This document shows positions 36,961 to 63,916 of a stretch of 64,000 nucleotides of DNA, piece by piece; the first letter of the stretch is position 1; every line of letters begins with the position of its first letter. Under the pieces are notes generated by a model. The model worked only from the letters and a program-made list of their open reading frames with translations, did no database searches and had not been told where the DNA came from. This stretch comes from Bacteroidales bacterium (lineage in GTDB: Bacteria > Bacteroidota > Bacteroidia > Bacteroidales > WCHB1-69), in NCBI GenBank assembly GCA_016281255.1, contig JAEEIG010000037.1:453-64452 (forward strand), given 5' to 3'. The position numbers and the translations under genes are program-made.

Positions 36961-37036
36961 GAGACTTGAGACTTGAGACTTAAGACTTGAGACTTAAGAC
37001 TTGAGACTTAAGACTTTGAACCTGAAACCTGAAACT
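36961..37036 (+). repeat. heptanucleotide tandem array (RAGACTT)8 + (TGAAACY)3
   Basis: Read directly: GAGACTT x3, then AAGACTT/GAGACTT alternating x5, then TGAACC, TGAAACC, TGAAACT. It lies between the gldB 3' end and the ssb promoter. Confidence 0.95.
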
Positions 37037-37101
37037 TTTGGGATAAGTAAACACAACAGTTGTTGTTCATCACTTCCCTCTTCCTTCTTCCCTCTTCCTT
37101 C

Positions 37102-38142
37102 TCACGACGGTTTGTATCCCGATTCTTTCAGGATTTTCTGGCTGTCGGTCATCTTCAGGAGTTCGTTGAGTGTGGTCTCGGGATGCGATTTCATGTAGCT
37201 TTGCACGATTTGGAAGCCGATGAAGACGCCGATGCGGCCGGGCGAGTCGTTGCCGAAGTCGCGGGTGAAGGGTGTCTCGTCGATCATGCGGCGGATGACG
37301 TCGTCGGAATTGTTATAGACCATGTTCTTTTCGATGAGTTTGTGCCAGATGGCCGACTCGTGCTCGATGGCCCATTTGTACTGCTCTTTGCTGTAGCAGA
37401 GGATATCTTCGGGCGGGGTGTTCGGGAACATCGTCTGCGTGAAGAGCATCTTCTTGCCGGCATCCACCATGTTGTCGAGCAACGTGACCAAGGTTTTGTC
37501 GGGCAGATGTCTGTAAACCAACGCTTTGGAGAAGCAGTCGGTGGCCATGTACTTCTTGTCGCAGCGGGCGGCGATGTATTTTGGCATTCCGGCTTGTCCG
37601 TAGTGCTTGTAGTCTTTGCCGAGGTACATGTCGAGGCAGATGAAGATGGTGTTTTCGTAACCGAAGACCTGCGGCATCTGGAAGTCGATGCCGGAAACCA
37701 GTGTGCAGAAGTCGGGGGCGTTCTCGTTGGGGAAGTGGGTGAGGTAGAGGCTCATGGCCGGGGTGACCTGACGTTTGAAGTCCGAGAGGTCGGCAAACTG
37801 GGCTTCCGTGTCTTTGTAAATCTCCTGGATGACGGGGTCGTTGATGAATCCTTTGATGGACTGTATCATTTCGGCGTTGTTCCAGGCGCCGTCGGCCACG
37901 ATGTTGTCAGGATATTTGCCGTAGAGCTTCTTGAATCCCACGGACATGTCGCTCTGGTCCATCATGAACAGGTCCTGTTCGTAACGTGATATTTTGATCT
38001 CCACATTTTTGGCTTTCTTCACCTGTTCTGCCGTCAGGGTGGGTTTTGCGACATTGACAGGTGCGTTCTTTTTCTTGCATCCCGTGCATCCCATGCAGAT
38101 AATCAGCAAGATACAGAGGATGGATAAGAGGTTCTTTCTCAT
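37102..38142 (-). CDS. gldB: gliding motility lipoprotein GldB
   Basis: The ATG at 38142 gives lipobox MRKNLLSILCILLIICMGC. The C-terminal region DSPGRIGVFIGFQIVQSYMKSH...ESGYKPS matches my recollection of the GldB family. The -7 box at 38167-38174 excludes the track start at 38169. Confidence 0.8.
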   Translation of the reverse strand: MRKNLLSILCILLIICMGCTGCKKKNAPVNVAKPTLTAEQVKKAKNVEIKISRYEQDLFMMDQSDMSVGFKKLYGKYPDNIVADGAWNNAEMIQSIKGFINDPVIQEIYKDTEAQFADLSDFKRQVTPAMSLYLTHFPNENAPDFCTLVSGIDFQMPQVFGYENTIFICLDMYLGKDYKHYGQAGMPKYIAARCDKKYMATDCFSKALVYRHLPDKTLVTLLDNMVDAGKKMLFTQTMFPNTPPEDILCYSKEQYKWAIEHESAIWHKLIEKNMVYNNSDDVIRRMIDETPFTRDFGNDSPGRIGVFIGFQIVQSYMKSHPETTLNELLKMTDSQKILKESGYKPS

Positions 38143-38166
38143 AAGTTTCTTCGTTTTTTGAAAAGG

Positions 38167-38174
38167 CAAAAGTA
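38167..38174 (-). promoter_or_regulatory. putative -7 box for gldB
   Basis: TACTTTTG on the minus strand, 24 nt upstream of the ATG at 38142. Confidence 0.45.
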
Positions 38175-38207
38175 CGATTTTTTAGTCTTTGAAAAAGATA
38201 ATTTGTG

Positions 38208-38215
38208 TATTTTTG
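38208..38215 (+). promoter_or_regulatory. putative -7 box for the saccharopine dehydrogenase-family gene
   Basis: TATTTTTG lies 37 nt upstream of the ATG at 38253. Confidence 0.45.
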
Positions 38216-38252
38216 CGCTTTCAAATTGAGTAGTCATAAATATTATAGACAA

Positions 38253-39458
38253 ATGGCAAGAGTATTAATCATCGGAGCGGGCGGCGTTGGTTCCGTCGTG
38301 GCTCACAAATGCGCTTCCGTACCGGAAGTTTTCACTGAAATCATGTTGGCCTCCCGCACGAAGGCGAAATGCGACGCCATCGCTGCGCAGATCGGCGGCA
38401 ACCGCATCCAAACCGCTCAGGTCGATGTCGACAACGTGGAAGAAACCATCCGTCTGCTTGAGAGCTATAAGCCTGATCTGCTGATAAATGTGGCGTTACC
38501 GTATCAGGACCTTCCGCTGATGGATGCCTGTTTGGCCACCAAGACCAACTACATGGACACCGCCAACTACGAGCCCCGCGACAAGGCGAAGTTCGAATAC
38601 AGCTGGCAGTGGGCCTACCACGACCGCTTCAAGGAAGCCGGCATCATGGCGCTGCTCGGCTGCGGTTTCGACCCCGGTATGACCAGCATCTACACCGCGT
38701 ATGCCGCCAAACACTACTTCGACGAGATGCACTATCTCGACATCGTGGACTGCAATGCCGGCGACCACGGCAAGGCATTCGCCACCAACTTCAACCCCGA
38801 AATCAACATCCGTGAGATCACCCAACGCGGCAAGTATTGGGAGAACGGTCAGTGGGTGGAGATCGACCCGATGTCAATTCACCGTCCCGTGGAATACCCG
38901 AATATCGGCGACCGTGAGTCTTATCTGCTTTATCATGAGGAATTGGAGTCTCTCGTGAAGAGCTATCCGACCATCAAGCGTGCCCGTTTCTGGATGACCT
39001 TCGGACAGAAATACCTCACTGTGCTGAACGTTCTGCAGGAGGTCGGCATGACCAGCATCAAGCCCATCCTCTACAAGGGTATGGAAATCGTGCCGTTGCA
39101 GTTCCTGAAGGCGGTGCTGCCCGAGCCTTCCTCCCTTGGCGAAGGCTACCACGGACAGACCTCCATCGGCTGCCAGATCAAGGGTGTCAAGGACGGCAAG
39201 GAGCGCACCTACTACGTGTGGAACAACTGCGACCATGCCGAGTGCTATAAGGAAGTGGGCGCACAAGCGGTCTCCTATACGACCGGCGTGCCTGCTATGT
39301 TGGGCGCGAAGATGATCCTCACCGGCACCTGGAAGGGTCAGGGTGTCTTCAACGTCGAACAGTTCGATCCCGATCCCTTCATGAAGGAAATCGGCGGTTA
39401 CGGTCTGCCGTGGAACGAGCGGATTGACCAGCCGCTGCCGGTTTATAAACACGAATAG
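38253..39458 (+). CDS. saccharopine dehydrogenase-family protein, probable carboxy(nor)spermidine dehydrogenase
   Basis: About 401 aa from MARVLIIGAGGVGSVVAHKCA (Rossmann GxGxxG). Length and sequence are typical of the polyamine-pathway enzyme of Bacteroides and Campylobacter. Confidence 0.75.
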   Translation: MARVLIIGAGGVGSVVAHKCASVPEVFTEIMLASRTKAKCDAIAAQIGGNRIQTAQVDVDNVEETIRLLESYKPDLLINVALPYQDLPLMDACLATKTNYMDTANYEPRDKAKFEYSWQWAYHDRFKEAGIMALLGCGFDPGMTSIYTAYAAKHYFDEMHYLDIVDCNAGDHGKAFATNFNPEINIREITQRGKYWENGQWVEIDPMSIHRPVEYPNIGDRESYLLYHEELESLVKSYPTIKRARFWMTFGQKYLTVLNVLQEVGMTSIKPILYKGMEIVPLQFLKAVLPEPSSLGEGYHGQTSIGCQIKGVKDGKERTYYVWNNCDHAECYKEVGAQAVSYTTGVPAMLGAKMILTGTWKGQGVFNVEQFDPDPFMKEIGGYGLPWNERIDQPLPVYKHE

Positions 39459-39459
39459 T

Positions 39460-39487
39460 AAATTCGGAATTCAGAATTAAGACGTGA
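39460..39487 (+). repeat. short degenerate heptamer array (AAATTCG GAATTCA GAATTAA GACGTGA)
   Basis: Four 7-bp units directly after the stop codon at 39456-39458. Confidence 0.6.
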
Positions 39488-39495
39488 TATAATGA

Positions 39496-39531
39496 GTAGG
39501 GACGTGCCATTGGCACGTCCCTACGTTTTTT
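39496..39531. terminator. bidirectional terminator, perfect GTAGGGACG palindrome
   Basis: GTAGGGACGTGCC-att-GGCACGTCCCTAC followed by GTTTTTT, between convergent genes. Confidence 0.8.
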
Positions 39532-40321
39532 ATTGTTTGAACCACAGGGGATGATCGCTGTCGTCGATGTAGTACAATTTGTCTTGAAAAAATCGGAATT
39601 GTGTGATGTTCGGTATTTTGATATCTATGGTTTCGATGGACATTGGGGAAGATTCGGTGGGAATTCTGTAGCGATACAAGGTGCTGTTTTTCAGATAAAT
39701 GATTTGATCCTTCGATAATTGCATCGCTTGGATGCCGGGAATGGGAATCATCTTCTCGAAGGTTCCGAAGAAGTCGAAAAGGCAGATGCCGCAAAGGGTG
39801 TCGAGGAGGGCGATGCGGTGTTCGGGGACGACCTGCATGTCCGTGGGGTGGAATTCACCGGGGAAGGTGATGTGTGTCTGACTCAACAAGTTGAGACTGA
39901 GGTCGGTGATGATGAGGTCTTGGTTGGCTTCGTCGTAGAGCACTATTTTGTTGGGGTTGCCCATAGCGGCTAACGAAACGGTCATCAACCCTTTGTCGAA
40001 GAGGCTCAGCGATCCATTGATAGGGGACAATTCGTTGTTCAACAGCAGGATAGTGCCGCTCTCTTGGTAGAAGACGAGGATTTTGGAGGCGATGCCTGCA
40101 TCCACTCTCGAAATGTTGCCCCATGTGGGATCGCTGTAGTTCAGCCGTTTGATGCCGTCGGCCGTGTAGGTGTCCAACGTCGAACCCATCGAGAGGAAGA
40201 CGTTGCCTTGCAGGTCAGTGGTGACAGACTCATATAGCTTGTCCGTAAAAAAAAGTCGCTCCTGGGCACTAACGCTCAGGGCGACTGAAAATATTATAAT
40301 GATGGAGATGAGATGTTTCAA
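39530..40321 (-). CDS. hypothetical exported protein (third gene of the low-complexity lipoprotein operon)
   Basis: 263 aa with signal peptide (M)KHLISIIIIFSVALSVSAQE and beta-rich sequence. The start codon is TTG and lies inside a TGAAACY repeat. No family recognised. Confidence 0.5.
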   Translation of the reverse strand: MKHLISIIIIFSVALSVSAQERLFFTDKLYESVTTDLQGNVFLSMGSTLDTYTADGIKRLNYSDPTWGNISRVDAGIASKILVFYQESGTILLLNNELSPINGSLSLFDKGLMTVSLAAMGNPNKIVLYDEANQDLIITDLSLNLLSQTHITFPGEFHPTDMQVVPEHRIALLDTLCGICLFDFFGTFEKMIPIPGIQAMQLSKDQIIYLKNSTLYRYRIPTESSPMSIETIDIKIPNITQFRFFQDKLYYIDDSDHPLWFKQ

Positions 40322-40341
40322 GTTTCAGGTTTCAAGTCTTA
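40314..40341 (-). repeat. heptamer array TAAGACT TGAAACC TGAAACT TGAAACA (read on the minus strand)
   Basis: It fills the 17-nt gap between the stop of the barrel gene (40339-40341) and the TTG start at 40321. The units are the same as the tail of the 36961 array. Confidence 0.8.
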
Positions 40342-41781: not shown

Positions 41782-41789
41782 TTTTTTAA

Positions 41790-41830
41790 GGTTTACAGGT
41801 TTATGGGTTTACAGGTTTGACAGGTTTATC
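41790..41830. repeat. 8-bp period array (GGTTTACA GGTTTATG GGTTTACA GGTTTGACA GGTTTATC)
   Basis: It fills the gap between the lipoprotein gene stop (41826-41828) and the barrel gene start (41781). Confidence 0.85.
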
Positions 41831-43427
41831 GTCTGCCGCCGGAGTGGGAACCGCCGGAGTGTCCGCCGCCGTAAGAACCGCCGCCATAGGAACCGCCGCG
41901 CGAGGAGCCGGAGCTGCTGTGGGAGGAACCGCTGTAGGAAGAACGGCTGCTGGAAGAGGGTGCGCTGTAAGAGGAGGGACGGCTGCTGGTGGATGCGGGA
42001 CGGTTGGTCGCGGGCGTGCTGCTGTTGCTTCTGGAAGGAGTGGCCGTGGCGGGACGGCTGTTGCTGCTTGACGGACGGTTGTAGTTGGAACGAGGGGAGG
42101 AGGGAGCGGTGGTCGTCGGTCTGGTTGTGGTGCTCGGAACCGTGCGGGTGGTGGTGCGGGGAGCGGTCGTGGTCGGTGTCGTTGTCGTGCTGGTGCCGGT
42201 GCTCGGACGAGTGGCGGTCGGACGGGTTGTCGTCGGACGGGCGGTCGTGCCGGAGGGGGTCACTACCGTGCGGGTCACTGTGGTCGGACGAGTGGTGGTG
42301 GTAGTGCTCGGAGTGGCACTGCTGTTTGCGGAAGCGCTTGTTCTGGCGGAAGTTACCGTGGTTGTCGTGACGGGCTTGGCCGTGGTGCCGGAAGTGCCGT
42401 TAGTGTTGGAGGGAGCCGTTGAGCCGTTGGCGGGAGATACGGTGGTATAGGTCGAGGCCGCATTGTCTTTGGTGTTGCGGGCGTTGGTGATCTTCTTTTC
42501 GGTAGGATTCACAGGGGAGGTGTTGCCGCCGTTGCCACTGTTGTTGAAACTGCTGCCGCCGCCCGTGGTGCCGGCGATTTGGTCGTAGCGTTGGTTGAAG
42601 GAGGTTGGCGTGGAGGAGTAGTGATTGTTGGTTGCGCCGTTACCGTAACCGCCTGCTATAGGACCGTTTGAACCCTCATGGTCGGGACGCTCGCCGCGGC
42701 CGCCGTTGCCATTGCCACCACCGTTACCCACGGAGGGTCCGATGTTGTTGCGGTGACCATAGTAATAGCTATGGTTCGGGTCGTGGTTGTTGTGGTACCA
42801 GTCGATAGGGGCGGGACCGTGAGGGCCGTAAGGGCCAGGATAGTAAGGATCCCAAGCGTAGTAGGGGTAGGGTCTGTACCAGCCCCAACCGTAGTTGAAC
42901 CCGCAACTGTACCAGCAGGGACCATAGTAGTAGGGACGATAGTAGTAACCCGGCCACCACCAATTGTAACCCAGGTAGATGCTTAAGCCAAAGCTGGCCG
43001 GGCAGTAGTCGTACCAGTACATGTTGGTGAAGAAGGGGTCGTAGTAGCCCCAGCCAACGTAAACATCGCTGTGGAAACGGCGGATACGAGACGCGTAGGC
43101 GTAGTCGTAATAGTCGTCCGGGTCGTACGCGTAGTTGCTGGCGGCGGCGGTGGAGTCATTCGCCACCTCCATGTAGGTGGTGACCACCGGCTCGCTGCTG
43201 CCCGGATAGTAGGTCAGCGTGCGCAACAGATTGCCGTTTTCGTCGGTTTCGTAAATGATGGAATCGGCCTCGACGGCGGCGTTGGCTGCGGCCGGATTGG
43301 CGGTCTTCGCCTTCATTTCGTCCGAAGATGAGGTGTATATGTCATCGTAGTAGGCGAAGTTCGCTGTGGAACAAGCTGCTAACAAGCAAGTTATTGCGCT
43401 TAGTACGATTAAAATTTGTTTCTTCAT
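41826..43427 (-). CDS. low-complexity lipoprotein (Y/W/P/G-rich block, T/S/P/R mucin-like block, SYGGG/HSGG tail)
   Basis: 533 aa with lipobox [19 protein letters not shown]. Contains [51 protein letters not shown], a ~200-aa S/T/P/R/A tract, and the end [23 protein letters not shown]. Confidence 0.6.
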
Positions 43428-43453
43428 AATGTCCTCCTTATCTCTTATTTTGT

Positions 43454-43461
43454 TATTTTTG
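43454..43461 (+). promoter_or_regulatory. putative -7 box for proS
   Basis: TATTTTTG lies 60 nt upstream of the ATG at 43522. Confidence 0.4.
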
Positions 43462-43521
43462 CACCTTAATTTTCAATTAGACGGCAAAAGTACTAAAAAG
43501 TTAATATATACCGAAAAATTT

Positions 43522-44997: not shown

Positions 44998-45073
44998 ACC
45001 TCTTCCTTATTAGCCCCGTAGGGGCGCCATATCATAAGCAGGGGTGCGAATCCCTGTGTCAAACGAAGTAAAT

Positions 45074-45874
45074 ATGCAACAAACTGATAAATATGCAGAG
45101 GCTCTGTCGGCGTTCCGGCATCTGCTGGAAATCATGGACGAGTTGCGTGAGAATTGCCCGTGGGATCGAGAACAGACTTTCGACACATTGCGCAACCTCA
45201 CTGTAGAAGAGACTTTCGAGCTGGCGGATGCCATCATGGAGAAGGACTATCCCGACATGTGCAAGGAGCTCGGGGATCTGATGCTCCACATTGTCTTCTA
45301 CTCGAAAATTGCTTCCGAACAGCATCTTTTCGAGGTGAAAGATGTAATTAACCAGCTGTGTGACAAATTAATACGCCGTCACCCGCATATCTACGGCGAG
45401 GTCAAGGCCGACTCGGCCAACCAAGTGCACGAGAACTGGGAGAAGATCAAGCTGCAAACCGAAGGGAACCGCTCCGTGCTGGGCGGCATCCCTTCCGGAA
45501 TGCCGGCGATCACCAAAGCTTACCGCATCCAAGACAAGGTCAGCGGGGTCGGTTTCGACTGGGACAACCGCGACCAAGTGTGGGACAAGGTGCAGGAGGA
45601 GCTCGGAGAACTTCAATCCGAGGTCAACAGTCCCGCCCCCGACCAAGCCCACATTGAAGAGGAGCTCGGCGATGTGCTTTTTGCCATCGTCAACTACTCC
45701 CGCTTTATCAACGTGCACCCGGAAGACGCCTTGGAAAAAACCAACCGCAAATTCCTTCGCCGTTTTCAACTTCTCGAACAATATGTGAAGGCCGACGGAC
45801 GTTCTCTTACCGATATGTCGTTGGCTGAGATGGATGTGTATTGGGAAAAGGCGAAGAGAGAGTTGAGACGTTAG
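45074..45874 (+). CDS. mazG: nucleoside triphosphate pyrophosphohydrolase MazG
   Basis: About 266 aa from MQQTDKYAEAL. Two MazG EExxE/D motifs are present (EETFELADAI, EELGDVLF). The TAG stop lies inside a heptamer array. Confidence 0.9.
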   Translation: MQQTDKYAEALSAFRHLLEIMDELRENCPWDREQTFDTLRNLTVEETFELADAIMEKDYPDMCKELGDLMLHIVFYSKIASEQHLFEVKDVINQLCDKLIRRHPHIYGEVKADSANQVHENWEKIKLQTEGNRSVLGGIPSGMPAITKAYRIQDKVSGVGFDWDNRDQVWDKVQEELGELQSEVNSPAPDQAHIEEELGDVLFAIVNYSRFINVHPEDALEKTNRKFLRRFQLLEQYVKADGRSLTDMSLAEMDVYWEKAKRELRR

Positions 45875-45915
45875 ACTTGGGACTTGGGACTTGGGACTTG
45901 GGACTTGAGATTATA
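45867..45915 (+). repeat. heptamer array GACGTTA (GACTTGG)4 GACTTGA GATTATA
   Basis: Read directly. It contains the mazG stop codon. Confidence 0.95.
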
Positions 45916-45982
45916 AAATAAAGACATTAATCAAAAACAATGGAAAATATGACAAATTATTATGACTTAACATATAACCCCA

Positions 45983-46031
45983 AAAGTCCTAAGTCTTACG
46001 TCTTAAGTCTTACGTCTCAAGTCTTACGTCT
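45983..46031 (-). repeat. heptamer array in inverse orientation (AAAGTCC TAAGTCT TACGTCT TAAGTCT TACGTCT CAAGTCT TACGTCT)
   Basis: Read directly. It is the inverted partner of 45867-45915, 67 bp away. Confidence 0.95.
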
Positions 46032-46047
46032 TATAAACCCCACTCGG

Positions 46048-47973
46048 ATGTACCACAAATTAAATATAGTATATATAATATTAATGTGTATCATCGCTCC
46101 GATGATTACCAGTGCGCAGAAGAGTTCCAAGGCGGCGCCGTTGTTTGAAAAGGCCAAGCAGTGTATGAAATCCAACGATTTCGACAAGGCGTTGACCTAT
46201 CTTTACCAAGCGCAAGCCAAAGATGCGAACTTTGCCGACCTCTATATCATGAAGGGCGACATTTTCAACTTCCGTTTGCAGTCCGACTCCGCCATGTGCA
46301 ACTACCAGCGTGCCATCGAGCTCATCGGCGATCCTGACCCGATGCTCTACTATATTGCCGGAAACGAGGGAGCGAAGTGCGGTGCCTACGAATATGCGCT
46401 CAATACCTTGCAACTTTTCCTGCAGAACGGTCTGCAGTATTCCGATGTGCACCCCGATGCGCAGAAAACCATTGCCAATTGTCGGTTTGCCATGGAGGAG
46501 ATGCGGCATCCCAAGCGTTTTGAGTTGGTTAACATGGGTGCCAACATCAATTCCGAGTGGGACGAAATGCTTGCCGCCATCACTGCGGACGACGAACAAC
46601 TCATTTTCACCGTTAAGCGCCCCCGCGACAAGGGCACCGTCTGCGCCTTCTGTCTCAATGAAGAGGATCTCTATAGCAGTCGTTTCGTCAATGGCGACTG
46701 GCTGCCGCGCGAACCGCTCGGCCCTCCGGTGCGTACCGGCTATAACGAGGGAGCGCAATGTCTCTCCCCCGACGGCAAGTATCTGCTTTACACCATGTGC
46801 GATGCCGACTTCGGGATGGGAAGCTGCGATATCTATTGGGCCAAGCTCATGGGTGACAAGTGGTCACGGCCCCGCAATTTCGGTGCGCCGGTGAACACTT
46901 CCGCCTGGGAGAGCCAGCCGACCATGTCTTCCGACGGCATGACCGTCTATTTTGCCTCTTCCCGTCCGGGCGGGTACGGCGGTATGGACATCTGGAAGAC
47001 CACCATGACCGCAGAAGGGGAGTTCACGGTTCCCGAGAATCTCGGTCCGTCGATCAACACCCCCGGCGACGATGCCGCCCCCTTCATCCACAGTGACGGC
47101 CGCACACTCTACTTCGCCTCTAACGGTCGCGTAGGCATGGGAGGCTATGATCTCTACTACACTACCCTCCAGCCGGATGGTACGTGGAGCGACCCCAAGA
47201 ATATGGGTTACCCTATCAACTCCCCTGCTGATGAGATCAATATCTTCATTAACGCCTCTGGTACAATGGCTTACATGGCTTCCGACAAAGACGGGGGCTA
47301 CGGCGGTCTCGACCTTTACCGTTTCGAGCTCGACGATGAGTTGCGTCCCAACCCTGTCACCTACATCAAGGGTCGTGTGCGCGACGCCTTCACCGGCGAT
47401 CCGTTGTCGGCCCGCATCGAGATGATCGACCTCTCCACACGTCAGCTTCTCACCTCCACCACTTCGGATCCGCTGACCGGCAGTTATCTTGCCTGTATTC
47501 ACACCGGGGGCAACGTGCTGCTCAACGTTTCGCATCCCGACTATCCGTTCTATTCCGAGAACTTCCAGCTGGAGCGCACCTACACGGAACTTTCCCCGTA
47601 TCTGAAAGACATTGCCTTGCAGCCCACGGATGTGGGAACGGTGGTGACATTGAAGAACGTCTTCTTCGACTTCGACAAGACCGAGCTACGGCCCGAGTCG
47701 TACGTGGAGCTTGACAAGTTGGTTGAGTATCTCCGAAAGCACAACATCCGGATCGAGATCGGAGGGCACACCGACGACCAGGGTTCCGACGAGTACAACG
47801 ACCGTTTGTCGGAGAGTCGTGCCAAGTCGGTGTATGACTACTTGGTGAGCAAAGGCATCTCCGCCGACCGGTTGCAGTACAAGGGTTATGGCAAGCGGAT
47901 GCCGGTTGCCGACAACGCCACCGAGGAGGGGCGTGCGGCGAACCGGCGGACCGAGTTCAAGATCATACGGTGA
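46048..47973 (+). CDS. OmpA-family outer-membrane protein (TPR + TolB-like beta-propeller repeats + OmpA C-terminal domain)
   Basis: The start at 46048 (MYHKLNIVYIILMCIIAPMITSAQ) lies downstream of the repeat array. PD40-like repeats are present (YFASSRPGGYGGMDIW, YFASNGRVGMGGYDLY, YMASDKDGGYGGLDLY). OmpA motif GHTDDQGSDEYNDRLSESRA...NRRTEFKI. Confidence 0.8.
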   Translation: MYHKLNIVYIILMCIIAPMITSAQKSSKAAPLFEKAKQCMKSNDFDKALTYLYQAQAKDANFADLYIMKGDIFNFRLQSDSAMCNYQRAIELIGDPDPMLYYIAGNEGAKCGAYEYALNTLQLFLQNGLQYSDVHPDAQKTIANCRFAMEEMRHPKRFELVNMGANINSEWDEMLAAITADDEQLIFTVKRPRDKGTVCAFCLNEEDLYSSRFVNGDWLPREPLGPPVRTGYNEGAQCLSPDGKYLLYTMCDADFGMGSCDIYWAKLMGDKWSRPRNFGAPVNTSAWESQPTMSSDGMTVYFASSRPGGYGGMDIWKTTMTAEGEFTVPENLGPSINTPGDDAAPFIHSDGRTLYFASNGRVGMGGYDLYYTTLQPDGTWSDPKNMGYPINSPADEINIFINASGTMAYMASDKDGGYGGLDLYRFELDDELRPNPVTYIKGRVRDAFTGDPLSARIEMIDLSTRQLLTSTTSDPLTGSYLACIHTGGNVLLNVSHPDYPFYSENFQLERTYTELSPYLKDIALQPTDVGTVVTLKNVFFDFDKTELRPESYVELDKLVEYLRKHNIRIEIGGHTDDQGSDEYNDRLSESRAKSVYDYLVSKGISADRLQYKGYGKRMPVADNATEEGRAANRRTEFKIIR

Positions 47974-48004
47974 TTAGTGATTTGTGAGTTGTGAGTTGTG
48001 ATTT
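47970..48004 (+). repeat. heptamer array GTGATTA GTGATTT GTGAGTT GTGAGTT GTGATTT
   Basis: Read directly. It contains the TGA stop of the OmpA-family gene. Confidence 0.9.
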
Positions 48005-48034
48005 GAATTGCTGATAATCAGAAGGTTATGAGAT

Positions 48035-58709: not shown

Positions 58710-58732
58710 TCAATAGTTATTCATACATGGAA

Positions 58733-58767
58733 GGAGTTGTGCGCACTGGCGTGCAACTCCTTTTTTT
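58733..58767 (+). terminator. rho-independent terminator of the giant gene
   Basis: GGAGTTGTGCGC-actg-GCGTGCAACTCC (two G-U pairs) followed by T7. Confidence 0.85.
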
Positions 58768-58953
58768 GATTTGAGATTTGAGATTTGAGATTTAAGACTT
58801 AAGACTTAAGACTTATGACTTATGACTTAAGATTTAAGACTAAAATCTAAAATCTAAAATCTAAAGTCTAAGGTCTAAAGTCCCAAGTCTAAAGTCTAAA
58901 GTCTAAAATCTAAAGTCCCAATTCTAAAGTCTCTAAAGTCTAAAGTCCCAAGT
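58768..58953. repeat. 186-bp head-to-head inverted heptamer array (10 forward GAYTTRA units, then 16 reverse CTAAAGT-type units)
   Basis: Read directly: (GATTTGA)3 GATTTAA (GACTTAA)2 (GACTTAT)2 GACTTAA GATTTAA, then (CTAAAAT)3 CTAAAGT CTAAGGT CTAAAGT CCCAAGT (CTAAAGT)2 CTAAAAT CTAAAGT CCCAATT CTAAAGT ct (CTAAAGT)2 CCCAAGT. Confidence 0.95.
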
Positions 58954-58971
58954 CCATAAACAAAAATTCTA

Positions 58972-60741
58972 ATGACCAACTACAAACGATATATCCCTTG
59001 GTTGTTCGCGGTGTTCTTGTTGAATGCGGTGTATGTTGTATTGACGATATTCGCGTTTTTGATGATCGAGCCGTTCGCGAAGTTGCTGTTTCGCGGCCAT
59101 TTGGAGGGATTGAGTCCATTGTCATCCTATTTTGTGTCGATTCTTGGCGGATACCTTCCGATGGACAGTCAGGGTGTTTCGTTTGTGACTTTGGTTTCCG
59201 CGGCCGTTTTTCTCTTCCTGTTGCGCAATCTTTCGGCGTATGCTTCTCAGTGGTTGATGGCCCATGTGCGTAGTGATTTTCTCTTTACGCTCCGCAATCG
59301 TCTCTACGACAAGATGATTTCATTGCCGTTGGGTTATTTCAACAAAGAGAGTCGCGGCGATGCGGTCACCCGTGCGGTGAACGACACCCAGGAGGTGGAA
59401 TACACGGTTCTCAACTCCATCTATCAGTTCCTTACCGACCCTCTCACCTTGTTTTGCTATCTCGGTTTCCTTTTTTACATCGACTACCAGCTTTCCTTGT
59501 GGGCGGTTTTGTTAATGCCGTTGTCCTTCCTGATCATCGGTTTCTTGGCGCACCGGCTCAAGCGTTCTTCGAAAACCTACCGTCAGCGACTTGGTGTCCT
59601 GTTGTCGCATGTGGAAGAGACTATTTCGGGGTTGCGGGTGATTTACGGTTTTAACGCCCAGGAGCGTGCCTATCGGCGTTTCAACGAGCGGAATCTGCAG
59701 TTCACGCAGAACCAGAAGCGGGTCTATCGACAGAGCTATTTGGCCAACCCGCTGAGTGAGTTCCTCGGGGTAAGTGCTGTTATGGTGGTGTTGGTGATCG
59801 GGGGCTCGTTGGTGCTTTCGGAGCGTTCTTCCTTGTCGGCGGAGCTTTTCATCACCTACATTGCCCTTTTCTCGCAGGTCATCACGCCCATTTCGCGCAT
59901 TTCCTCGGCCTTTTCGGACTACAAGCGCGGGGAGGCGGCGCTGGACCGTATCCGCGATTTTTTGGCGATTCCCGACAATGTGGAGGATAGCGGCGCGGTG
60001 TTGACTCTTCCCGGTTTTCACGAGGCTTTGACGTTCCGGGATGTCTCTTTCGCCTACACGGATGCCGAGGTGTTGAGCCATATCGATCTGACCATTCCGA
60101 AGGGGAAGACGGTGGCGTTTGTGGGGCAGTCGGGTGCTGGAAAATCCACCCTTGCCGATTTGCTGATGCGGTTCTATGACCCTACCGGCGGCGAGATATT
60201 GTTGGACGGGGTGCCCATCCGGCATTACGGGGTGGGGGATTACCGTTCTTTGTTCGCTTTGGTGTCGCAGGATGTGATGCTTTTTCACGACACTATCTAC
60301 CACAATATCACGATGGGGATGGAGGCCACGCCGGAGCAGGTCGCTGAAGCGGCGAAAACGGCCAATATTTACGACTTTGTGATGTCGCTGCCTGACGGGT
60401 TCGGCCATGTCGTCGGCGACCGCGGAACGACGCTTTCCGGCGGCCAGCGGCAACGGGTGAGCATTGCGAGGGCGGTGTTGCGGAAGGCGCCTGTGCTGGT
60501 GCTGGACGAAGCCACCTCGGCGATGGACACGGAGAGCGAGCGGCTGGTGCAGCAGTCGATAGAAGCGTTGTCGAAGCAGTGCACGGTGGTGATGATCGCC
60601 CACAGGCTCTCCACGGTGCAGCGTGCCGACCTGATCTGTGTGCTGGATGCCGGCCGGCTGGTGGAATCCGGCACGCACGAAGAGCTGATGGCGGCGAAAG
60701 GGACTTATTACAAGTTAGTAGTTAGTAGTTGTGATTTGTGA
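58972..60741 (+). CDS. ABC transporter permease/ATP-binding protein (MsbA-like exporter)
   Basis: 589 aa. A six-TM N-terminal half, Walker A GQSGAGKST, signature LSGGQRQR and Walker B LVLDEATSAMD. The last 9 codons (KLVVSSCDL) and the stop are encoded by the repeat array. Confidence 0.9.
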   Translation: MTNYKRYIPWLFAVFLLNAVYVVLTIFAFLMIEPFAKLLFRGHLEGLSPLSSYFVSILGGYLPMDSQGVSFVTLVSAAVFLFLLRNLSAYASQWLMAHVRSDFLFTLRNRLYDKMISLPLGYFNKESRGDAVTRAVNDTQEVEYTVLNSIYQFLTDPLTLFCYLGFLFYIDYQLSLWAVLLMPLSFLIIGFLAHRLKRSSKTYRQRLGVLLSHVEETISGLRVIYGFNAQERAYRRFNERNLQFTQNQKRVYRQSYLANPLSEFLGVSAVMVVLVIGGSLVLSERSSLSAELFITYIALFSQVITPISRISSAFSDYKRGEAALDRIRDFLAIPDNVEDSGAVLTLPGFHEALTFRDVSFAYTDAEVLSHIDLTIPKGKTVAFVGQSGAGKSTLADLLMRFYDPTGGEILLDGVPIRHYGVGDYRSLFALVSQDVMLFHDTIYHNITMGMEATPEQVAEAAKTANIYDFVMSLPDGFGHVVGDRGTTLSGGQRQRVSIARAVLRKAPVLVLDEATSAMDTESERLVQQSIEALSKQCTVVMIAHRLSTVQRADLICVLDAGRLVESGTHEELMAAKGTYYKLVVSSCDL

Positions 60742-60830
60742 TTTGTGATTTGTGATTTGTGATTTGTGATTTGTGATTTGTGATTTGAGATTTGAGATTT
60801 GAGATTTGAGATTTGTGATTTGTGACTTGT
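60714..60830 (+). repeat. heptamer array: degenerate GTTAGTA units, then (GATTTGT)7 (GATTTGA)4 (GATTTGT)2 GACTTGT
   Basis: Read directly; 14 clean units from 60733 to 60830. It spans the ABC gene stop and lies upstream of four-helix cassette 1. Confidence 0.95.
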
Positions 60831-60871
60831 GTTTTTTTAAGTGATGTTTGTTTTTGTATTATAATATTTTT

Positions 60872-60879
60872 TATTTTTG
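60872..60879 (+). promoter_or_regulatory. putative -7 box for four-helix-bundle gene 1
   Basis: TATTTTTG lies 33 nt upstream of the ATG at 60913. The 21-nt leader AAATTATTGTTTAACAAAATA (60883-60903) is identical in cassette 2. Confidence 0.5.
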
Positions 60880-60912
60880 CGGAAATTATTGTTTAACAAA
60901 ATAAATATCCTT

Positions 60913-61341
60913 ATGAAAACTTATTCTTTTGAAAATCTTGATGTTTGGAAATATTCCAGACAATTAGTCAAACAAGTTTACAACATTCAATCTGCATTTC
61001 CATCTTTTGAAAGGTATGGCTTGGGAGACCAAATAAGACGTGCCGTTGTTTCTCTTTCGTCGAATATTGCAGAAGGAAATGCAAGAAGTTCAATCAAGGA
61101 CCAGGTTCATTTCTTAGAAATATCTAAAGGGTCTCTAATGGAAGTCTATTGTCAAATGTTATTAGCCTATGATTTGAATTATATTAATGCAAATCAGCTG
61201 TCAAAGTGCAAAGAGAACATTGATGTCATTTTTAAACTGCTCAATGGCCTCATTTATCAAAAAATCAATCTTATATCTAACAATGCTGTCCAAACCCCAT
61301 ATCGAAACAAATACTGTCAGCCCCATAATCATAAATCATAA
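60913..61341 (+). CDS. four-helix-bundle protein (23S rRNA intervening-sequence protein / Avd-like family)
   Basis: The start at 60913 gives MKTYSFENLDVWKYSRQLV...FGLGDQIRRAVVSLSSNIAEGNAR...GSLMEV, the family pattern. The C-terminal HNHKS and the stop lie inside the downstream array. Confidence 0.85.
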   Translation: MKTYSFENLDVWKYSRQLVKQVYNIQSAFPSFERYGLGDQIRRAVVSLSSNIAEGNARSSIKDQVHFLEISKGSLMEVYCQMLLAYDLNYINANQLSKCKENIDVIFKLLNGLIYQKINLISNNAVQTPYRNKYCQPHNHKS

Positions 61342-61379
61342 GTCATAAATCATAAGTCATAAATCCTAAGTCTAAAATC
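61324..61379 (-). repeat. heptamer array, inverse orientation (CATAATC ATAAATC ATAAGTC ATAAATC ATAAGTC ATAAATC CTAAGTC TAAAATC)
   Basis: Read directly; 8 units between four-helix gene 1 and trmB. Confidence 0.95.
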
Positions 61380-61387
61380 AAACATCA

Positions 61388-62053
61388 ATGTCAAAACATA
61401 AATTAGCGAGATTCGCGGAGAACGCGACGTTTGAGAATTTGTTCCAGCATACGGAATACGACAGGGCGGGAAAGGAGTTCCCGTTGCGGGGCCGTTGGAA
61501 GGAGGATTATTTCCACAACGACCGTCCCATTGTGCTGGAGTTGGGCTGCGGCAAAGGGGAGTACACCATTGCGATGGCGAAGCGGTTCCCCGGGCGCAAC
61601 TACATCGGCATCGACCGGAAGGGGGCGCGGTTGTGGCGCGGCTGCAAGGACGCCATCGAGCAGGAGCTGGCGAATGTGGCGTTCCTGCGCATCACCATCG
61701 ACCACATAGAGCACTATTTCGCCCCCGGCGAGGTGGACGAGATTTGGGTGACCTTCCCGGACCCGCAGATCAAGAAGGAGCGCAAGCGCTTGGTGGGCCC
61801 GCATTTCGTGAACGACTACTATCGCCGGATTTGGCCCGCAAACGGCGGTATTTTGCATTTGAAGTCCGATAGCGACTTCTTGTACGATTATCTCCTCGAA
61901 ACGGCGAAAGAACAGCGCTGGGAGCTTCTGCAGGACATTCCCGACGTGTATGCCGGAGACGTTGATCCGTTGCTCACGGAGGTGCAGACGTTTTACGAGA
62001 AGATGTGGTTGGCGGAGGGGAAGACGATACACTATGTGAGACTTAAGACTTAA
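61388..62053 (+). CDS. trmB: tRNA (guanine46-N7)-methyltransferase
   Basis: 221 aa with SAM motif LELGCGKGEYT and FPDPQIKK. The last codons (VRLKT) and the stop are encoded by the repeat array. Confidence 0.9.
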   Translation: MSKHKLARFAENATFENLFQHTEYDRAGKEFPLRGRWKEDYFHNDRPIVLELGCGKGEYTIAMAKRFPGRNYIGIDRKGARLWRGCKDAIEQELANVAFLRITIDHIEHYFAPGEVDEIWVTFPDPQIKKERKRLVGPHFVNDYYRRIWPANGGILHLKSDSDFLYDYLLETAKEQRWELLQDIPDVYAGDVDPLLTEVQTFYEKMWLAEGKTIHYVRLKT

Positions 62054-62088
62054 GACTTGAGACTTGAGACTTGAAACTTAAGACTGTA
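62040..62088 (+). repeat. heptamer array (GACTTAA)2 (GACTTGA)3 AACTTAA GACTGTA
   Basis: Read directly. It contains the stop codons of both convergent genes: trmB (62051-62053) and four-helix gene 2 (62078-62080). Confidence 0.95.
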
Positions 62089-62458
62089 TGGTGGAAAGTT
62101 GTTTGGACTTTTGGTATCGCATCCCTTTTAGCAACTTATGTACTTCTTCTATTTTCTCTTTGCAAAGTTTTAGTTGCTTTTCGGTAATGTAGTTTAAATC
62201 ATAAGCTAATGTCAACTGGCAATAGACTTCCATCAACGATCCAAGGGCAATCTCAATGAAATGAATTTGTTCTTTTATGGAATACCGGGCGTTCCCTTCA
62301 ACAAAATTTGACGACACGGAAACAACAGCTCTCCTCAACTGATCTCCCAAACCATATTTTTCAAATGAAGGAAATGTGGATTGGATACGGTAAACAAGCA
62401 AAACAAGTTCTCTGGATTTTTTCCAAACTTCAAGATTTTCAAACGAATAAGTGTTCAT
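62078..62458 (-). CDS. four-helix-bundle protein (23S rRNA IVS protein / Avd-like family), paralog 2
   Basis: The ATG at 62458 gives MNTYSFENLEVWKKSRELV...YGLGDQLRRAVVSVSSNFVEGNAR. By hand alignment, 83 of the first 117 residues are identical to paralog 1. Confidence 0.85.
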   Translation of the reverse strand: MNTYSFENLEVWKKSRELVLLVYRIQSTFPSFEKYGLGDQLRRAVVSVSSNFVEGNARYSIKEQIHFIEIALGSLMEVYCQLTLAYDLNYITEKQLKLCKEKIEEVHKLLKGMRYQKSKQLSTIQS

Positions 62459-62491
62459 ACTATAAAATATTTTGTTAAACAATAATTTTTG

Positions 62492-62499
62492 CAAATATA
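62492..62499 (-). promoter_or_regulatory. putative -7 box for four-helix-bundle gene 2
   Basis: TATATTTG on the minus strand, 33 nt upstream of the ATG at 62458, the same spacing as cassette 1. The conserved leader is at 62468-62488. Confidence 0.5.
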
Positions 62500-62534
62500 A
62501 TCTTTTTATAATATAAAAAGGGCTTTCTTCAAAA

Positions 62535-62580
62535 AAAGTCTTAAGTCTCAAGTCTTAAGTCTAAAAATAATCTCAAGTCT
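62535..62580 (-). repeat. heptamer array, inverse orientation (AAAGTCT TAAGTCT CAAGTCT TAAGTCT ... CAAGTCT)
   Basis: Read directly. It lies upstream of four-helix cassette 2 and reads AGACTTR on the cassette strand. Confidence 0.9.
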
Positions 62581-62592
62581 CAATTATTTTTG

Positions 62593-62600
62593 TACTTTTG
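62593..62600 (+). promoter_or_regulatory. putative -7 box for gcvT
   Basis: TACTTTTG lies 38 nt upstream of the ATG at 62639. Confidence 0.5.
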
Positions 62601-62638
62601 CGCTCTCAAAAAGTTATTACAATTAAATCCAAAACAAT

Positions 62639-63733
62639 ATGAAAGAAACCGTTTACAGAGCGAAACATGAGGCCTTAGGCGCCAAAATGGAAGAGTTTGC
62701 CGGCTTTTACATGCCGATTCAGTACGACAGCATCACCAACGAGCACCTGCAGGTGCGTAACAAAGTGGGCGTGTTCGACGTGTCCCACATGGGTGAGTTC
62801 ACCGTGAAGGGTCCGAAGGCGTTGGCATTGCTGCAACACATCACCACCAACGATGTGGCTGCCTTGTTCCCGGGCAAAGTGCAATACAGCTGCTTCCCGA
62901 ACGGCAAGGGCGGTATCGTCGATGACCTTTTGGTTTACAATCTCCATGACGAGGATTACCTGCTGGTGGTGAACGCCGCCAACATCGACAAAGACTGGGC
63001 ATGGGTGGTGGAGCAGAACAAGGCTTTCGGTGCCGAGATCGAGAACATCTCCGACAGCATCTCCCAATTGGCAGTGCAGGGTCCTTTGGCACTCAAGGCT
63101 ATGCAGAAACTGACCAGCGCGAACGTGGTGGACATGGAGTACTACACCAACCAGATCATCACTTTCGCCGGCATCGACAATATCCTCTTCTCCACGACCG
63201 GTTACACTGGCAGCGGCGGATGTGAGATTTATTTCCCGAATGAGGTGGCCATGAAGATTTGGGATGCCGTGTTCGAGGCTGGTGCTGAGTTCGACATCAA
63301 ACCCATCGGTTTGGGTGCTCGCGACACCTTGCGTTTGGAGATGGGCTTCTGCCTGTATGGTCACGAGATTGACGACACGATCTCTCCGATCGAGGCCGGT
63401 TTGGGCTGGATCACGAAGTTCGTGGACGGCAAGGATTTCATCGACCGCAAGTACATGGAAGACCTGAAAGCCAACGGCGTGACCCGCAGAATCGCCGGTT
63501 TCGAGCTGATTGACCGCGGAATTCCGAGAAACGGCTACGAAGTGTGCGATGCCGAGGGTAACGTCATCGGCGAAGTGCGTTCCGGCACATTCGGTCCGTC
63601 CGTGAACAAGGGCATCGGCACGGCGCTGATCAAGAAAGAGTTCGCGAAATCCGGTACGGAAATTTTCATCAAAGTGCGTAACCGCCTGCTGAAGGCCGTT
63701 ACGGTGAAGATGCCGTTCTACAAACCCGAATAA
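62639..63733 (+). CDS. gcvT: glycine cleavage system aminomethyltransferase T
   Basis: 364 aa with [12 protein letters not shown] and [13 protein letters not shown]. Confidence 0.95.
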
Positions 63734-63764
63734 TTCAATGGCGTATGCTGTTGTTTGATAATAA

Positions 63765-63797
63765 ACGTCCGGGTTTTTCGCCTGGACGTTTTTTTTG
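63765..63797 (+). terminator. rho-independent terminator after gcvT
   Basis: ACGTCCGGG-tttttcg-CCTGGACGT followed by a T8 run. Confidence 0.8.
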
Positions 63798-63799
63798 GG

Positions 63800-63839
63800 C
63801 TTAGAGGCTTAGAGGTTTAGAGGTTAATAAGTTTAGAGG
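63800..63839. repeat. 8-bp period array (CTTAGAGG x2, TTTAGAGG, TTAATAAG, TTTAGAGG)
   Basis: Read directly, immediately after the gcvT terminator. Confidence 0.85.
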
Positions 63840-63864
63840 GGTAAATGGGTAAACGAAAAAAATG

Positions 63865-63872
63865 TAATTTTG
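63865..63872 (+). promoter_or_regulatory. putative -7 box for the last gene
   Basis: TAATTTTG lies 44 nt upstream of the ATG at 63917. Confidence 0.45.
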
Positions 63873-63890
63873 CAGCATCGTTCTGAAAGC

Positions 63891-63911
63891 TTAAGTCATC
63901 AGTCAAAAGTC
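63891..63911 (-). repeat. short heptamer array in a 5' leader (TTAAGTC ATCAGTC AAAAGTC)
   Basis: Three 7-bp units with the conserved AGTC core, between the -7 box and the ATG at 63917. Confidence 0.6.
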
Positions 63912-63916
63912 AAAAT

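Follow-up and report, generated by a model that had tools for sequence, protein, structure and literature searches.

Heptamer arrays at gene junctions of a Bacteroidales genome, many of them probable arms of intervening-sequence-like hairpin cassettes

The stretch studied here, 64,000 nucleotides of contig JAEEIG010000037.1 of a Bacteroidales bacterium (GenBank assembly GCA_016281255.1) and referred to below as the window, carries tandem arrays of 7-nt units at the gene junctions of its right-hand 27 kb. With moderate confidence, these arrays are read as short-period repeats of the short tandemly repeated repetitive (STRR) class, many of which form the arms of intergenic hairpin cassettes resembling the intervening sequences (IVSs) of 23S rRNA genes. 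Two pairs of arms in the window (60714-61383 and 62037-62580) enclose a gene of the 23S_rRNA_IVP family (PF05635, hereafter IVP), and two further pairs are hairpins without an open reading frame (ORF). This layout is the architecture of ORF-bearing 23S rRNA IVSs, placed between protein-coding genes. Direct support comes from the pairing of the arms, their polarity, the link to one gene family across phyla, changes in steps of 7 nt, the presence or absence of a cassette, an inversion at arrays, and purifying selection on the encoded protein. The remaining window arrays are ORF-less hairpins, arms parted by rearrangement, or solo arrays. The heptamer array class and the IVS architecture are already known, and what is added here is the junction of both.

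Paired arms in the window

Forward arrays (GAYTTNN) are followed by reverse arrays (NNAARTC), and four such pairs are complementary, with 28-61 Watson-Crick pairs:

45859-45899 with 45984-46024: 33 Watson-Crick and 5 G·U pairs, 84 nt between the paired segments
58764-58841 with 58851-58928: 61 Watson-Crick and 2 G·U pairs, almost nothing between
60728-60785 with 61327-61383: 45 Watson-Crick and 9 G·U pairs, the gene IVP1 between
62043-62072 with 62536-62565: 28 Watson-Crick and 1 G·U pairs, the gene IVP2 between

In such pairs, the arm right after the stop codon is G-rich and C-poor, and the complementary C-rich arm stands before the next gene. In predicted RNA folds compared with shuffled sequences, the hairpin at 45859-46031 reaches -64.8 kcal/mol (z = -7.7) and the palindrome at 58764-58953 reaches -81.3 kcal/mol (z = -9.4), while the z values of cassettes 1 and 2 are -6.4 and -4.1. 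A fifth pair is formed by 37009-37035 and 40315-40341, a weak array that is the reverse complement of the former (24 Watson-Crick pairs of 27); its arms lie 3.3 kb apart and enclose GldB, a saccharopine dehydrogenase and an unknown 263-aa ORF. The components of the two hairpins and the two cassettes are as follows:

45859..45915, + strand: G-rich 5' arm (GACTTGG)x5 of an ORF-less hairpin; holds the MazG stop TAG at 45872-45874
45983..46031, + strand: C-rich 3' arm (AAGTCTT/ACGTCTT)x7 of the same hairpin; upstream of the probable PD40/OmpA start
58764..58841, + strand: 5' arm of an ORF-less palindrome, GATTTGA x3, GACTTAA/GACTTAT x7; directly after the hairpin 58729-58764
58842..58953, + strand: 3' arm (AAATCTA/AAGTCTA/AAGTCCC)x16, palindrome partner of the preceding; upstream of the ABC transporter gene
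60714..60832, + strand: cassette 1 5' arm, (GTTAGTA)x2.5 then (GTGATTT/GAGATTT/GTGACTT)x14-15; holds the ABC stop TGA at 60739-60741
60872..60879, + strand: TATTTTTG, a match to TAnnTTTG and putative promoter; within the loop, 34 nt before the start codon of IVP1
60913..61341, + strand: IVP1, 142-aa four-helix-bundle protein (PF05635 23S_rRNA_IVP/TIGR02436); AT-rich cassette
61324..61383, + strand: cassette 1 3' arm (ATAAATC/ATAAGTC)x8; pairs with 60728-60785
62037..62088, + strand: cassette 2 arm (GACTTAA/GACTTGA)x7; holds the TrmB stop TAA at 62051-62053
62078..62458, - strand: IVP2, 126-aa four-helix-bundle protein (PF05635/TIGR02436)
62492..62499, - strand: TATATTTG, a TAnnTTTG motif and putative promoter; in the loop, upstream of IVP2
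62535..62580, + strand: cassette 2 second arm (AAGTCTT/AAGTCTC)x4 with a degenerate tail

An earlier note on this DNA, made from the letters alone, had stated that forward units generate stop codons, and four host ORFs (MazG, OmpA, ABC and TrmB) indeed terminate within a forward array. The OmpA ORF as apparently annotated starts within the hairpin. This start is probably wrong, because the signal peptide begins at M37 (~46048), downstream of the reverse array.

The genes inside the cassettes

IVP1 and IVP2 match PF05635 ('23S rRNA-intervening sequence protein') at E ~1e-35 and TIGR02436 ('four helix bundle protein') with 111-113 bits against a cutoff of 24, and IVP2 matches the structure of the pentameric Xcc0516 (PDB 2GSC) with E = 6e-19. 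The two genes share ~70% DNA identity across 392 nt, and both are AT-rich in GC-richer surroundings. Values of dN/dS among IVP orthologues and paralogues range from 0.04 to 0.21, which indicates a functional protein under purifying selection; the copy in the related contig L023 is a pseudogene (W12stop and a frameshift).

The sequence TAnnTTTG, a -7 promoter motif of Bacteroidetes, stands in front of both window genes, in the interval from the 5' arm to the ATG. In its strict form and 15-80 nt upstream, the motif is found at 31 of 77 IVP homologues against 14 of 303 control windows, always inside the loop, and these motifs would serve as IVP promoters. Both proteins also match PF22296 (bAvd) and NCBIfam DivGenRetAVD weakly, with 29-37 bits against a cutoff of 80 bits. 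A diversity-generating retroelement (DGR) was considered and rejected, given an Avd score under the cutoff and no reverse transcriptase in the scanned window ORFs (template and variable repeats were not searched for).

Survey of Bacteroidales

An alignment of IVP homologues was scanned against one genome per Bacteroidales species, which yielded 80 loci. The 260 nt upstream of each IVP gene were aligned for pairing against the 260 nt downstream, with flanks of mismatched loci as controls. This explicit alignment replaced RNA duplex energies between flanks, which were dropped as implausibly large and unable to tell real pairs from controls. Complementarity of the flanks exceeded the 95th percentile of the controls in 61 of 75 loci and the control maximum in 31 of the 75.

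With periods of 5-12 allowed, arrays were called upstream of the gene in 41 of 74 loci and downstream likewise in 41, and 30 loci have them on both sides. The period is 7 in 24 loci and 8 in 14-15, and it is the same on both sides in 29 of the 30 loci having two arrays. The unit varies from locus to locus yet is complementary within a locus, examples being GACGTAT, GGACTGA, CGATTTA, AGATAAC, GGGTTAA, GGTTATT, GTTTAGA, GCTTAGA, GGTGAGAG and GGTTATAA. In terms of sequence, such matching of units between arms amounts to covariation at the level of the whole array. The polarity seen in the window is general as well: the 5' arm has more G than C in 59 of 60 loci (p = 1e-16; pooled counts of 884 G and 171 C), so that by symmetry the polarity holds on both strands.

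Arrays are found at 51% of IVP-adjacent junctions against 16% of the others (odds ratio 5.4, p = 1e-13), or against 25% of the other junctions of at least 80 nt (odds ratio 3.2, p = 4e-6). Array density is 2.1 per kb near IVP genes and 0.20 per kb otherwise, but this per-base comparison overstates the enrichment because coding DNA is array-free, and the per-junction figure of 51% versus 16-25% is the one to be used. Hence, the association with IVP genes is strong, not exclusive. Host genes likewise bracketed by complementary pairs include groES, a cytidylate-kinase-like gene, dCMP deaminase, nuoI, nuoJ and GDP-fucose synthase.

Other phyla and a genuine rRNA intervening sequence

A tblastn search with IVP2 against 72,556 plasmid records matched 27 records, 24 of them cyanobacterial, and 14 loci were inspected. 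Complementary G-rich/C-rich arms of short period are present at 12 of the 14 (cyanobacterial, Gemmatimonadota and Alphaproteobacterial), among them GGGAGTR/TCCCTAC in Nostoc edaphicum, GGTGACA/TGTCACC in Anabaena sp. 90, AGTCAGG/CCTGACT in Trichormus and Nostoc punctiforme, and GGGCAGGA/CTCCTGCC in Gemmatirosa. The two loci without such arms adjoin insertion sequence (IS) transposases. In the first eight plasmid loci, 10 of the 12 heptamer arrays within 26.6 kb lie at most 150 nt from the IVP gene.

One of the loci, on plasmid AZO_p2 of Azospirillum lipoferum 4B (L124, NC_016586.1 12898-16230), is a genuine gene for 23S rRNA, which Rfam LSU_rRNA matches with 2529 bits. Its intervening sequence holds an IVP (PF05635) ORF, unannotated in the record, between CAGAGGA/CGGAGGA and TCCGTCC/TCTGTCT arms, and these heptamer-like arms pair over ~30 bp in the predicted fold. 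As for carriage by phages, the IVP gave no match in 50,697 phage records and one match in IMG/VR.

Several cyanobacterial IVP genes that have array arms are located between cas6 and cas4, cas10 and cmr3, or nrdB and nrdA; the loci with an IVP inside cas or nrd operons are those of Anabaena sp. 90 (L092), Pseudanabaena (L122), Picosynechococcus (L120) and Nostoc edaphicum (L091). A 'CRISPR association' of 23S_rRNA_IVP has been published (PMC3936711, PMC10910872), and it may simply reflect hairpin cassettes inserted between cas genes or into operons. The Pseudanabaena galeata plasmid locus (L122, ~1300-2000) is an exception to the simple two-arm layout: the arrays flanking its IVP are direct, (AAAAGCT)x16 upstream and (AAAAGCC)x10 downstream, and an inverted partner (AGCTTTT)x3 lies further upstream.

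Variation and rearrangement between strains

Three contigs with 98.4-98.8% identity to the window (L007, L008 and L009), together with L090, reproduce the arrays and the gene order. Since independent assemblies agree, the arrays are real and not chimeric joins, and an assembly artefact or chimera, which would have undone the earlier note, is rejected. An exact-protein look-up of MazG from its ATG start returned one contig with identical arrays, and look-ups of the ABC transporter and of the MazG ORF from a GTG start returned no match. Short-read contigs frequently terminate within arrays.

Unit number changes between close strains. The array at 61324-61379 measures 53 nt in the window and L008 and 60 nt, one unit longer, in L007 and L009, and the arrays labelled A and C differ in unit number and composition among near-identical strains. 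When the locus is compared with phase-variable contingency loci, unit number does vary, yet the arrays lie after stops, upstream of promoters or in leaders, outside reading frames.

Cassettes also come and go. Cassette 1 is missing from the orthologous ABC-TrmB junction in L010, L011, L012 and L023; the junction in L023 has 58 nt with neither array nor IVP, and the other three have other arrays and no IVP. IVP2 is kept with GACTTRA arms in L010, L011 and L023 as in the window. The segment from IVP2 to GcvT is inverted in L023, and the endpoints of the inversion are the positions of opposed GACTTAA/AAGTCTT arrays: on the TrmB side a forward array, and at the counterpart of 63891-63915 of the window a reverse array. 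A cytidylate-kinase-like gene downstream is inverted in L003, L012 and L023.

The exact IVP proteins P0058 and P0039 each occur in one context only (23 and 18 contigs), which gives no sign of recent transposition. A MITE (miniature inverted-repeat transposable element) or other non-autonomous transposon was therefore set aside, no near-identical copies having been found at different sites for these two proteins (no systematic search was made for target-site duplications).

In six contigs with a 100% identical GcvT protein and 95-99% DNA identity (L001-L006), homology to the window stops at 62587, adjoining an array, and to the left these contigs carry a nitroreductase, Rnf genes and a different array in place of IVP2, TrmB and ABC. 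In L012, two junctions (378-549 and 1207-1623) have the same ~35-nt non-repeat element (CCTTRAGCNGCCCCGYTAGGGGCAAGA...GCTCGGTAG) amid arrays, which may be another small dispersed element.

The full set of window arrays

Tandem Repeats Finder and a lag-7 self-match scan of the window both recovered the heptamer arrays where the earlier note had placed them. Strict lag-7 runs number 9-10 at 36.9-64 kb and 0 at 1-36.9 kb. Shuffled window sequence gave no lag-7 run (50 shuffles at a 21-nt threshold and 20 at a 14-nt threshold), and lags 4-12 other than 7 gave nothing except single runs at lag 6 and lag 8. The hand count of about 100 units was accurate, given that the 12 arrays then listed total 740 nt, or ~106 units. 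Nine of the 12 are strong, and three (39460-39487, 40314-40341 and 63891-63911) are weak, with ~3 imperfect units each. Overlooked at that time were an array (CTTCCYT)n at 37073-37102, period-8 junction arrays at 41785-41828 and 63798-63839, and the (GTTAGTA)2.5 block that heads the array at 60714; moreover, 58768-58953, listed as a single array, is two opposed arrays forming a palindrome. The arrays outside the hairpins and cassettes described above, with the features adjoining them, are:

36957..37036, + strand: composite array (GAGACTT/AAGACTT)x8 then (GAAACCT)x2.5, between the start of SSB(-) and the end of GldB(-)
37009-37035, + strand: tail of the preceding array, inverted partner of 40315-40341
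37073..37102, - strand: (AGGGAAG/AGGAAGA)n array, CTTCCYT on the + strand, immediately 3' of the GldB stop
39460..39487, + strand: weak array, 3-4 units GAATTCA/GAATTAA/GACGTGA, adjoining the saccharopine dehydrogenase stop
39487-39533: terminator hairpin downstream of, and separate from, the preceding array
40314..40341, + strand: weak reverse-type array GTTTCAA, AGTCTTA, reverse complement of 37009-37035
41785..41828, no strand assigned: period-8 array (TTTACAGG)x5.5 where two unknown minus-strand genes meet
47970..48005, + strand: solo G-rich array (GTGATTT/GTGAGTT)x5, holding the OmpA stop TGA at 47971-47973
63798..63839, + strand: period-8 array (GGCTTAGA)x3-5, directly after the GcvT terminator hairpin 63763-63791
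63891..63915, + strand: weak array of reverse type (TTAAGTC, ATCAGTC, AAAAGTC), located in the leader of the following gene; in position it matches the right-hand endpoint of the L023 inversion

No complementary partner of the solo array at 47970..48005 was found within 500 nt. The arrays themselves do not have the form of intrinsic terminators (a short GC-rich stem and a U-run), and separate terminator-like hairpins precede two of them (58729-58764 and 63763-63791). Rfam reports no known RNA family on any array.

Every window array stands at a gene junction or overlaps just the final codons of an ORF, as had been noted, and beyond 36.9 kb one is present at about 11-12 of the 15 junctions. The earlier exclusions of CRISPRs and of coding repeats were upheld as well: the 7-nt units are contiguous and without spacers, and the arrays sit at junctions. 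Confinement to the right-hand 27 kb is true of the window, whose left 36.9 kb has no period-7 or period-8 array at any junction, but it does not extend to relatives, where arrays are found at 16-25% of ordinary junctions. Likewise, the shared GAYTT core is local to the window, since contigs of sister strains, 95-99% identical to it in the shared part, have GGTTTAA, CAGCCAA, GTTAGTA and GGTTATT arrays.

Relation to known systems

Strict STRR units are CCCCAGT, TTGGTCA and CAACAGT, in heterocystous cyanobacteria, whose STRR heptamers were reportedly described by Mazel et al. in 1990. The window differs from these in its host, a rumen Bacteroidales bacterium, and in its GAYTTNN units. It shares the features of the wider class of heptameric long simple-sequence repeats and STRRs, having at least 3 head-to-tail 7-nt copies, intergenic position, several unit families and one-unit steps between strains. 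The likeness to cyanobacterial STRRs lies in the period of 7, several unit families per genome, intergenic position and copy-number variation. It goes further than the analogy that was first proposed, which was apt: heptamer arrays on Nostocales plasmids bracket homologous four-helix-bundle genes as inverted pairs. The STRRs differ in phylum and units, and the searchable papers on them make no link to PF05635 and do not treat the arrays as paired arms.

In common with 23S rRNA IVSs (those of Leptospira, Coxiella burnetii, Brucella, Haemophilus and Azospirillum lipoferum), the window has long-stem inverted repeats, with a stem of at least 25 bp and, in two of the pairs, a PF05635/S23p ORF in the loop, the others being ORF-less. 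The defining location differs, as the window cassettes lie between ABC, TrmB and GcvT genes, outside rRNA helix 25/45. In the IVS of Coxiella burnetii, the loop holds an S23p ORF and the stem measures 28 bp; this IVS has 2-3 strain-variable GACAGAT heptamers and is excised in vitro by RNase III, with the 5' cut at the first repeat (PMC4990558). Arms of short tandem units, G-rich on the 5' side and C-rich on the 3' side, are thus present both in the rRNA elements (GACAGAT x2-3 in Coxiella, PMC4990558; CAGAGGA/CGGAGGA in Azospirillum) and in the window. On the other hand, arms in the window reach at least 15 units, only for the rRNA elements has excision by RNase III been demonstrated, and the window IVP has its own promoter-type motif and shows purifying selection, whereas the Coxiella ORF is reported as decaying.

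The earlier note was aware of no equivalent description in Bacteroidota. This does not hold, as MacGregor 2015 (PMC4679880) reports heptamer direct repeats, TAACTGA among them, in five Bacteroidetes as well as in Beggiatoaceae and cyanobacteria. Those arrays are similarly intergenic in Bacteroidetes, of mixed heptamer families and missing at orthologous junctions of close relatives, and contigs end in them; they differ in unit, in being mainly direct repeats just upstream of start codons and in the translational role proposed for them. One inverted set is mentioned there in a Beggiatoaceae genome, with no paired-arm treatment and the embedded gene family unnoticed (PMC4679880).

The novelty of the heptamer class is also weakened by Rehm et al. 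2015 (PMC4692102), who describe convergent heptamer pairs near ORF 3' ends in Xanthomonas and Nostoc. Their GGGAATC (Xanthomonas) and GGGGAYT (Nostoc) repeats are intergenic, at a mean of 28 nt from the upstream ORF end, and downstream of ORFs their G-rich strand is the coding strand. Each Xanthomonas genome has 70-75 convergent inverted pairs, and lengths vary extensively among related strains. They are read as G-quadruplex formers with no mention of S23, whereas the GAYTTNN units of the window have no G-runs (PMC4692102). The Avd protein of DGRs shares a homologous four-helix-bundle fold, in contrast to which the window IVPs have no reverse transcriptase among the ~36 scanned window ORFs.

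In the literature open to full-text search, with subscription papers outside it, heptamer or octamer arrays are not linked to PF05635 genes beyond the Coxiella IVS. Heptamer arrays (STRRs from 1990, long simple-sequence repeats, GGGAATC, TAACTGA) have repeatedly been catalogued without a unifying explanation, and the 23S_rRNA_IVP/S23p family is large, unexplained and recurs as an 'associated' gene, for instance at cas loci. The present results tie a 35-year-old heptamer puzzle to a single gene family, small and widespread, in Bacteroidales, cyanobacteria, Gemmatimonadota and a genuine rRNA IVS, and both problems gain a testable model, namely a hairpin cassette with a fixed polarity from G-rich to C-rich. 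In practical terms, arrays break short-read assemblies, coincide with synteny breakpoints (one inversion ending at arrays) and extend or replace the C-terminal codons and stops of host genes. Annotation and comparison of metagenome-assembled genomes are therefore affected.

Interpretation

In the direction of the host gene, a stop codon is followed by a G-rich, C-poor arm full of TGA, TAA or TAG, a loop, a C-rich, G-poor arm and the next gene. The arrays would grow and shrink via slipped-strand mispairing. The likeness of the arms is probably maintained on DNA, by quasi-palindrome template switching or gene conversion, because neither a strand bias of wobble-type mismatches nor a correlation between arm lengths is seen. 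In read-through transcripts from the upstream gene, the arms would pair as duplexes of 25-60 bp, and RNase III, as in the homologous rRNA IVSs, would cut these duplexes and uncouple the flanking messages. The polarity may persist because it halts arriving ribosomes without creating start codons, given that no ATG, GTG or TTG is possible in a G-poor arm before the next gene.

A number of results weigh against the cassette reading, or limit its reach. Window stems have 17 G·U against 4 A·C mismatches, a bias that comes from few repeated units. As a sign of RNA-level selection this asymmetry was promising, but it is gone in the 61 loci (53 versus 70 on the IVP strand and 67 versus 67 on the host-gene strand). 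The lengths of the two arms do not correlate (rho 0.06), and in some cases they differ widely, as in L010 with ~18 versus 4 units. Since the promoter motif is inside the loop, the IVP's own transcript would carry the 3' arm only. The lack of wobble strand bias, the uncorrelated arm lengths and the internal promoter motif are the chief evidence against a purely RNA-based function, and RNase III cleavage of window transcripts would follow by analogy with the rRNA elements. Some adjacent arrays do not pair, as with 36961/37073 in the window and at the ABC-TrmB junction of L011. The ORF-less loops have no homology to the cassette interiors, and the idea that these hairpins are deletion derivatives of IVP cassettes was rejected accordingly. 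Finally, arrays are common away from IVP genes (16-25% of junctions) and some solo arrays are partnerless; hence the cassette model directly explains part of the family only.

A broader proposal, of which we are doubtful, is that non-DGR PF05635 genes and inverted arrays of 7-8-nt units are one self-contained element across phyla, whose pentameric protein would recognise its own unit as RNA or DNA, with neighbouring arrays of the same unit as its targets or descendants. A single system, hitherto overlooked, would then comprise STRRs, the heptamers of Xanthomonas and Nostoc, the arrays of Bacteroidales and rRNA IVSs. More locally, the clustering of window arrays with the unit types of the two local cassettes may reflect local spread or recognition by the encoded protein.

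The latter is part of an explanation to which we give little weight, namely that the arrays are protein-binding sites, the unit being recognised, most plausibly by the embedded Avd-like pentameric protein, at its own arms and at nearby arrays of the same unit, on DNA or RNA. Avd binds the DGR reverse transcriptase and its RNA, and the window proteins are homologous to it (the weak DivGenRetAVD match). The arrays travel with the gene, as IVP2 orthologues in the window, L010, L011 and L023 keep their GACTTRA arms; the non-IVP window arrays use the GAYTTNN unit types of the local cassettes, L001-L006, which are of the same species and have no IVP, carry other units, and the protein is under purifying selection. 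However, proteins that are 77% identical have different units (GACGTAT versus GACTTAA), and the sharing of units in the window may be explained just as well by local duplication. Nor is there fixed helical phasing, periods 7 and 8 being interchangeable. The earlier note had argued from a recurrence of the core on one helix face to cooperative DNA binding, and this argument is unsupported, because the period varies (8 in ~1/3 of equivalent loci, and sometimes longer) and the key regularity, then unnoticed, is the inverted complementarity of paired arrays.

It is similarly improbable that the arrays are neutral slippage debris, that is, heptamers and octamers that arise where intergenic DNA tolerates them, with ~7-nt steps favoured by replication slippage in this lineage, and that have no function, so that the IVP link, pairing and polarity are by-products. 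Such an origin would account for the arrays at 16-25% of ordinary junctions in relatives, the unit-number differences among near-identical strains, the uncorrelated arm lengths and the lack of G·U asymmetry, and heptamers are the commonest long simple-sequence repeat class in many prokaryotes (Mrazek 2007, as cited in PMC4679880 and PMC4692102). Yet it does not predict arms that are locus-specific but complementary, with the same period in 29 of 30 loci, the G-rich-first polarity in 59 of 60, or the recurrence of this layout with a single gene family, both in four phyla and within 23S rRNA. We judge it slightly less probable still that the arms are terminal inverted repeats of a non-autonomous mobile element, acting on DNA for transposition or recombinational insertion, with the ORF-less pairs as MITE-like derivatives. 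Although cassette 1 is present or absent at an orthologous junction, the cargo is AT-rich in GC-richer surroundings, complementarity is strand-symmetric without G·U bias, one copy is decayed (L023) and a transposon origin or mobility of IVSs is an older hypothesis (Burgin 1990; Ralph and McClelland 1993; both as cited in PMC4990558), no transposase or integrase lies in or beside the cassettes, and each exact IVP protein is confined to a single context. Furthermore, the paralogues are old, with saturated dS, the near-absence from phage and IMG/VR records does not fit, and neither do ORF-less loops unrelated to cassette interiors.

Gene context of the window

The window is an ordinary Bacteroidota chromosome according to Pfam and NCBIfam, with type IX secretion and gliding genes, tRNA synthetases and RecG, and its proteins have their homologues in metagenome-assembled genomes of rumen Bacteroidales. 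Pfam and NCBIfam scans of the ~36 window ORFs found no reverse transcriptase, transposase or integrase, and no rRNA was found in the window, where Rfam reports one tRNA only. Beyond 36.9 kb, the genes that border the junctions are SSB, GldB, saccharopine dehydrogenase, three unknowns, ProRS, MazG, a PD40/OmpA protein, a giant 3402-aa protein, an ABC exporter, TrmB and GcvT.

The 3402-aa ORF (48501-58709) has a type IX secretion system (T9SS) C-terminal sorting domain and one HYR-like domain; its block is low in GC (0.42-0.46 versus ~0.52 elsewhere), and arrays border it on both sides. The 533-aa ORF at 41826-43427(-), without a Pfam match, contains several period-15 tandem repeats (41831-42248 and 42917-42947), which are 5-residue coding repeats, and a neighbouring 480-aa ORF bears a weak resemblance to BamG and PorV/PorQ-type beta-barrel proteins. 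Lastly, a family of palindromic hairpins, GTAGRGACG...CGTCYCTAC followed by a T-run, stands at gene ends in the window (18930-18959 and 39494-39526) and also at the orthologous ABC-TrmB junction of two related species (L010 and L023), and it looks like a REP-like terminator element of these Bacteroidales.

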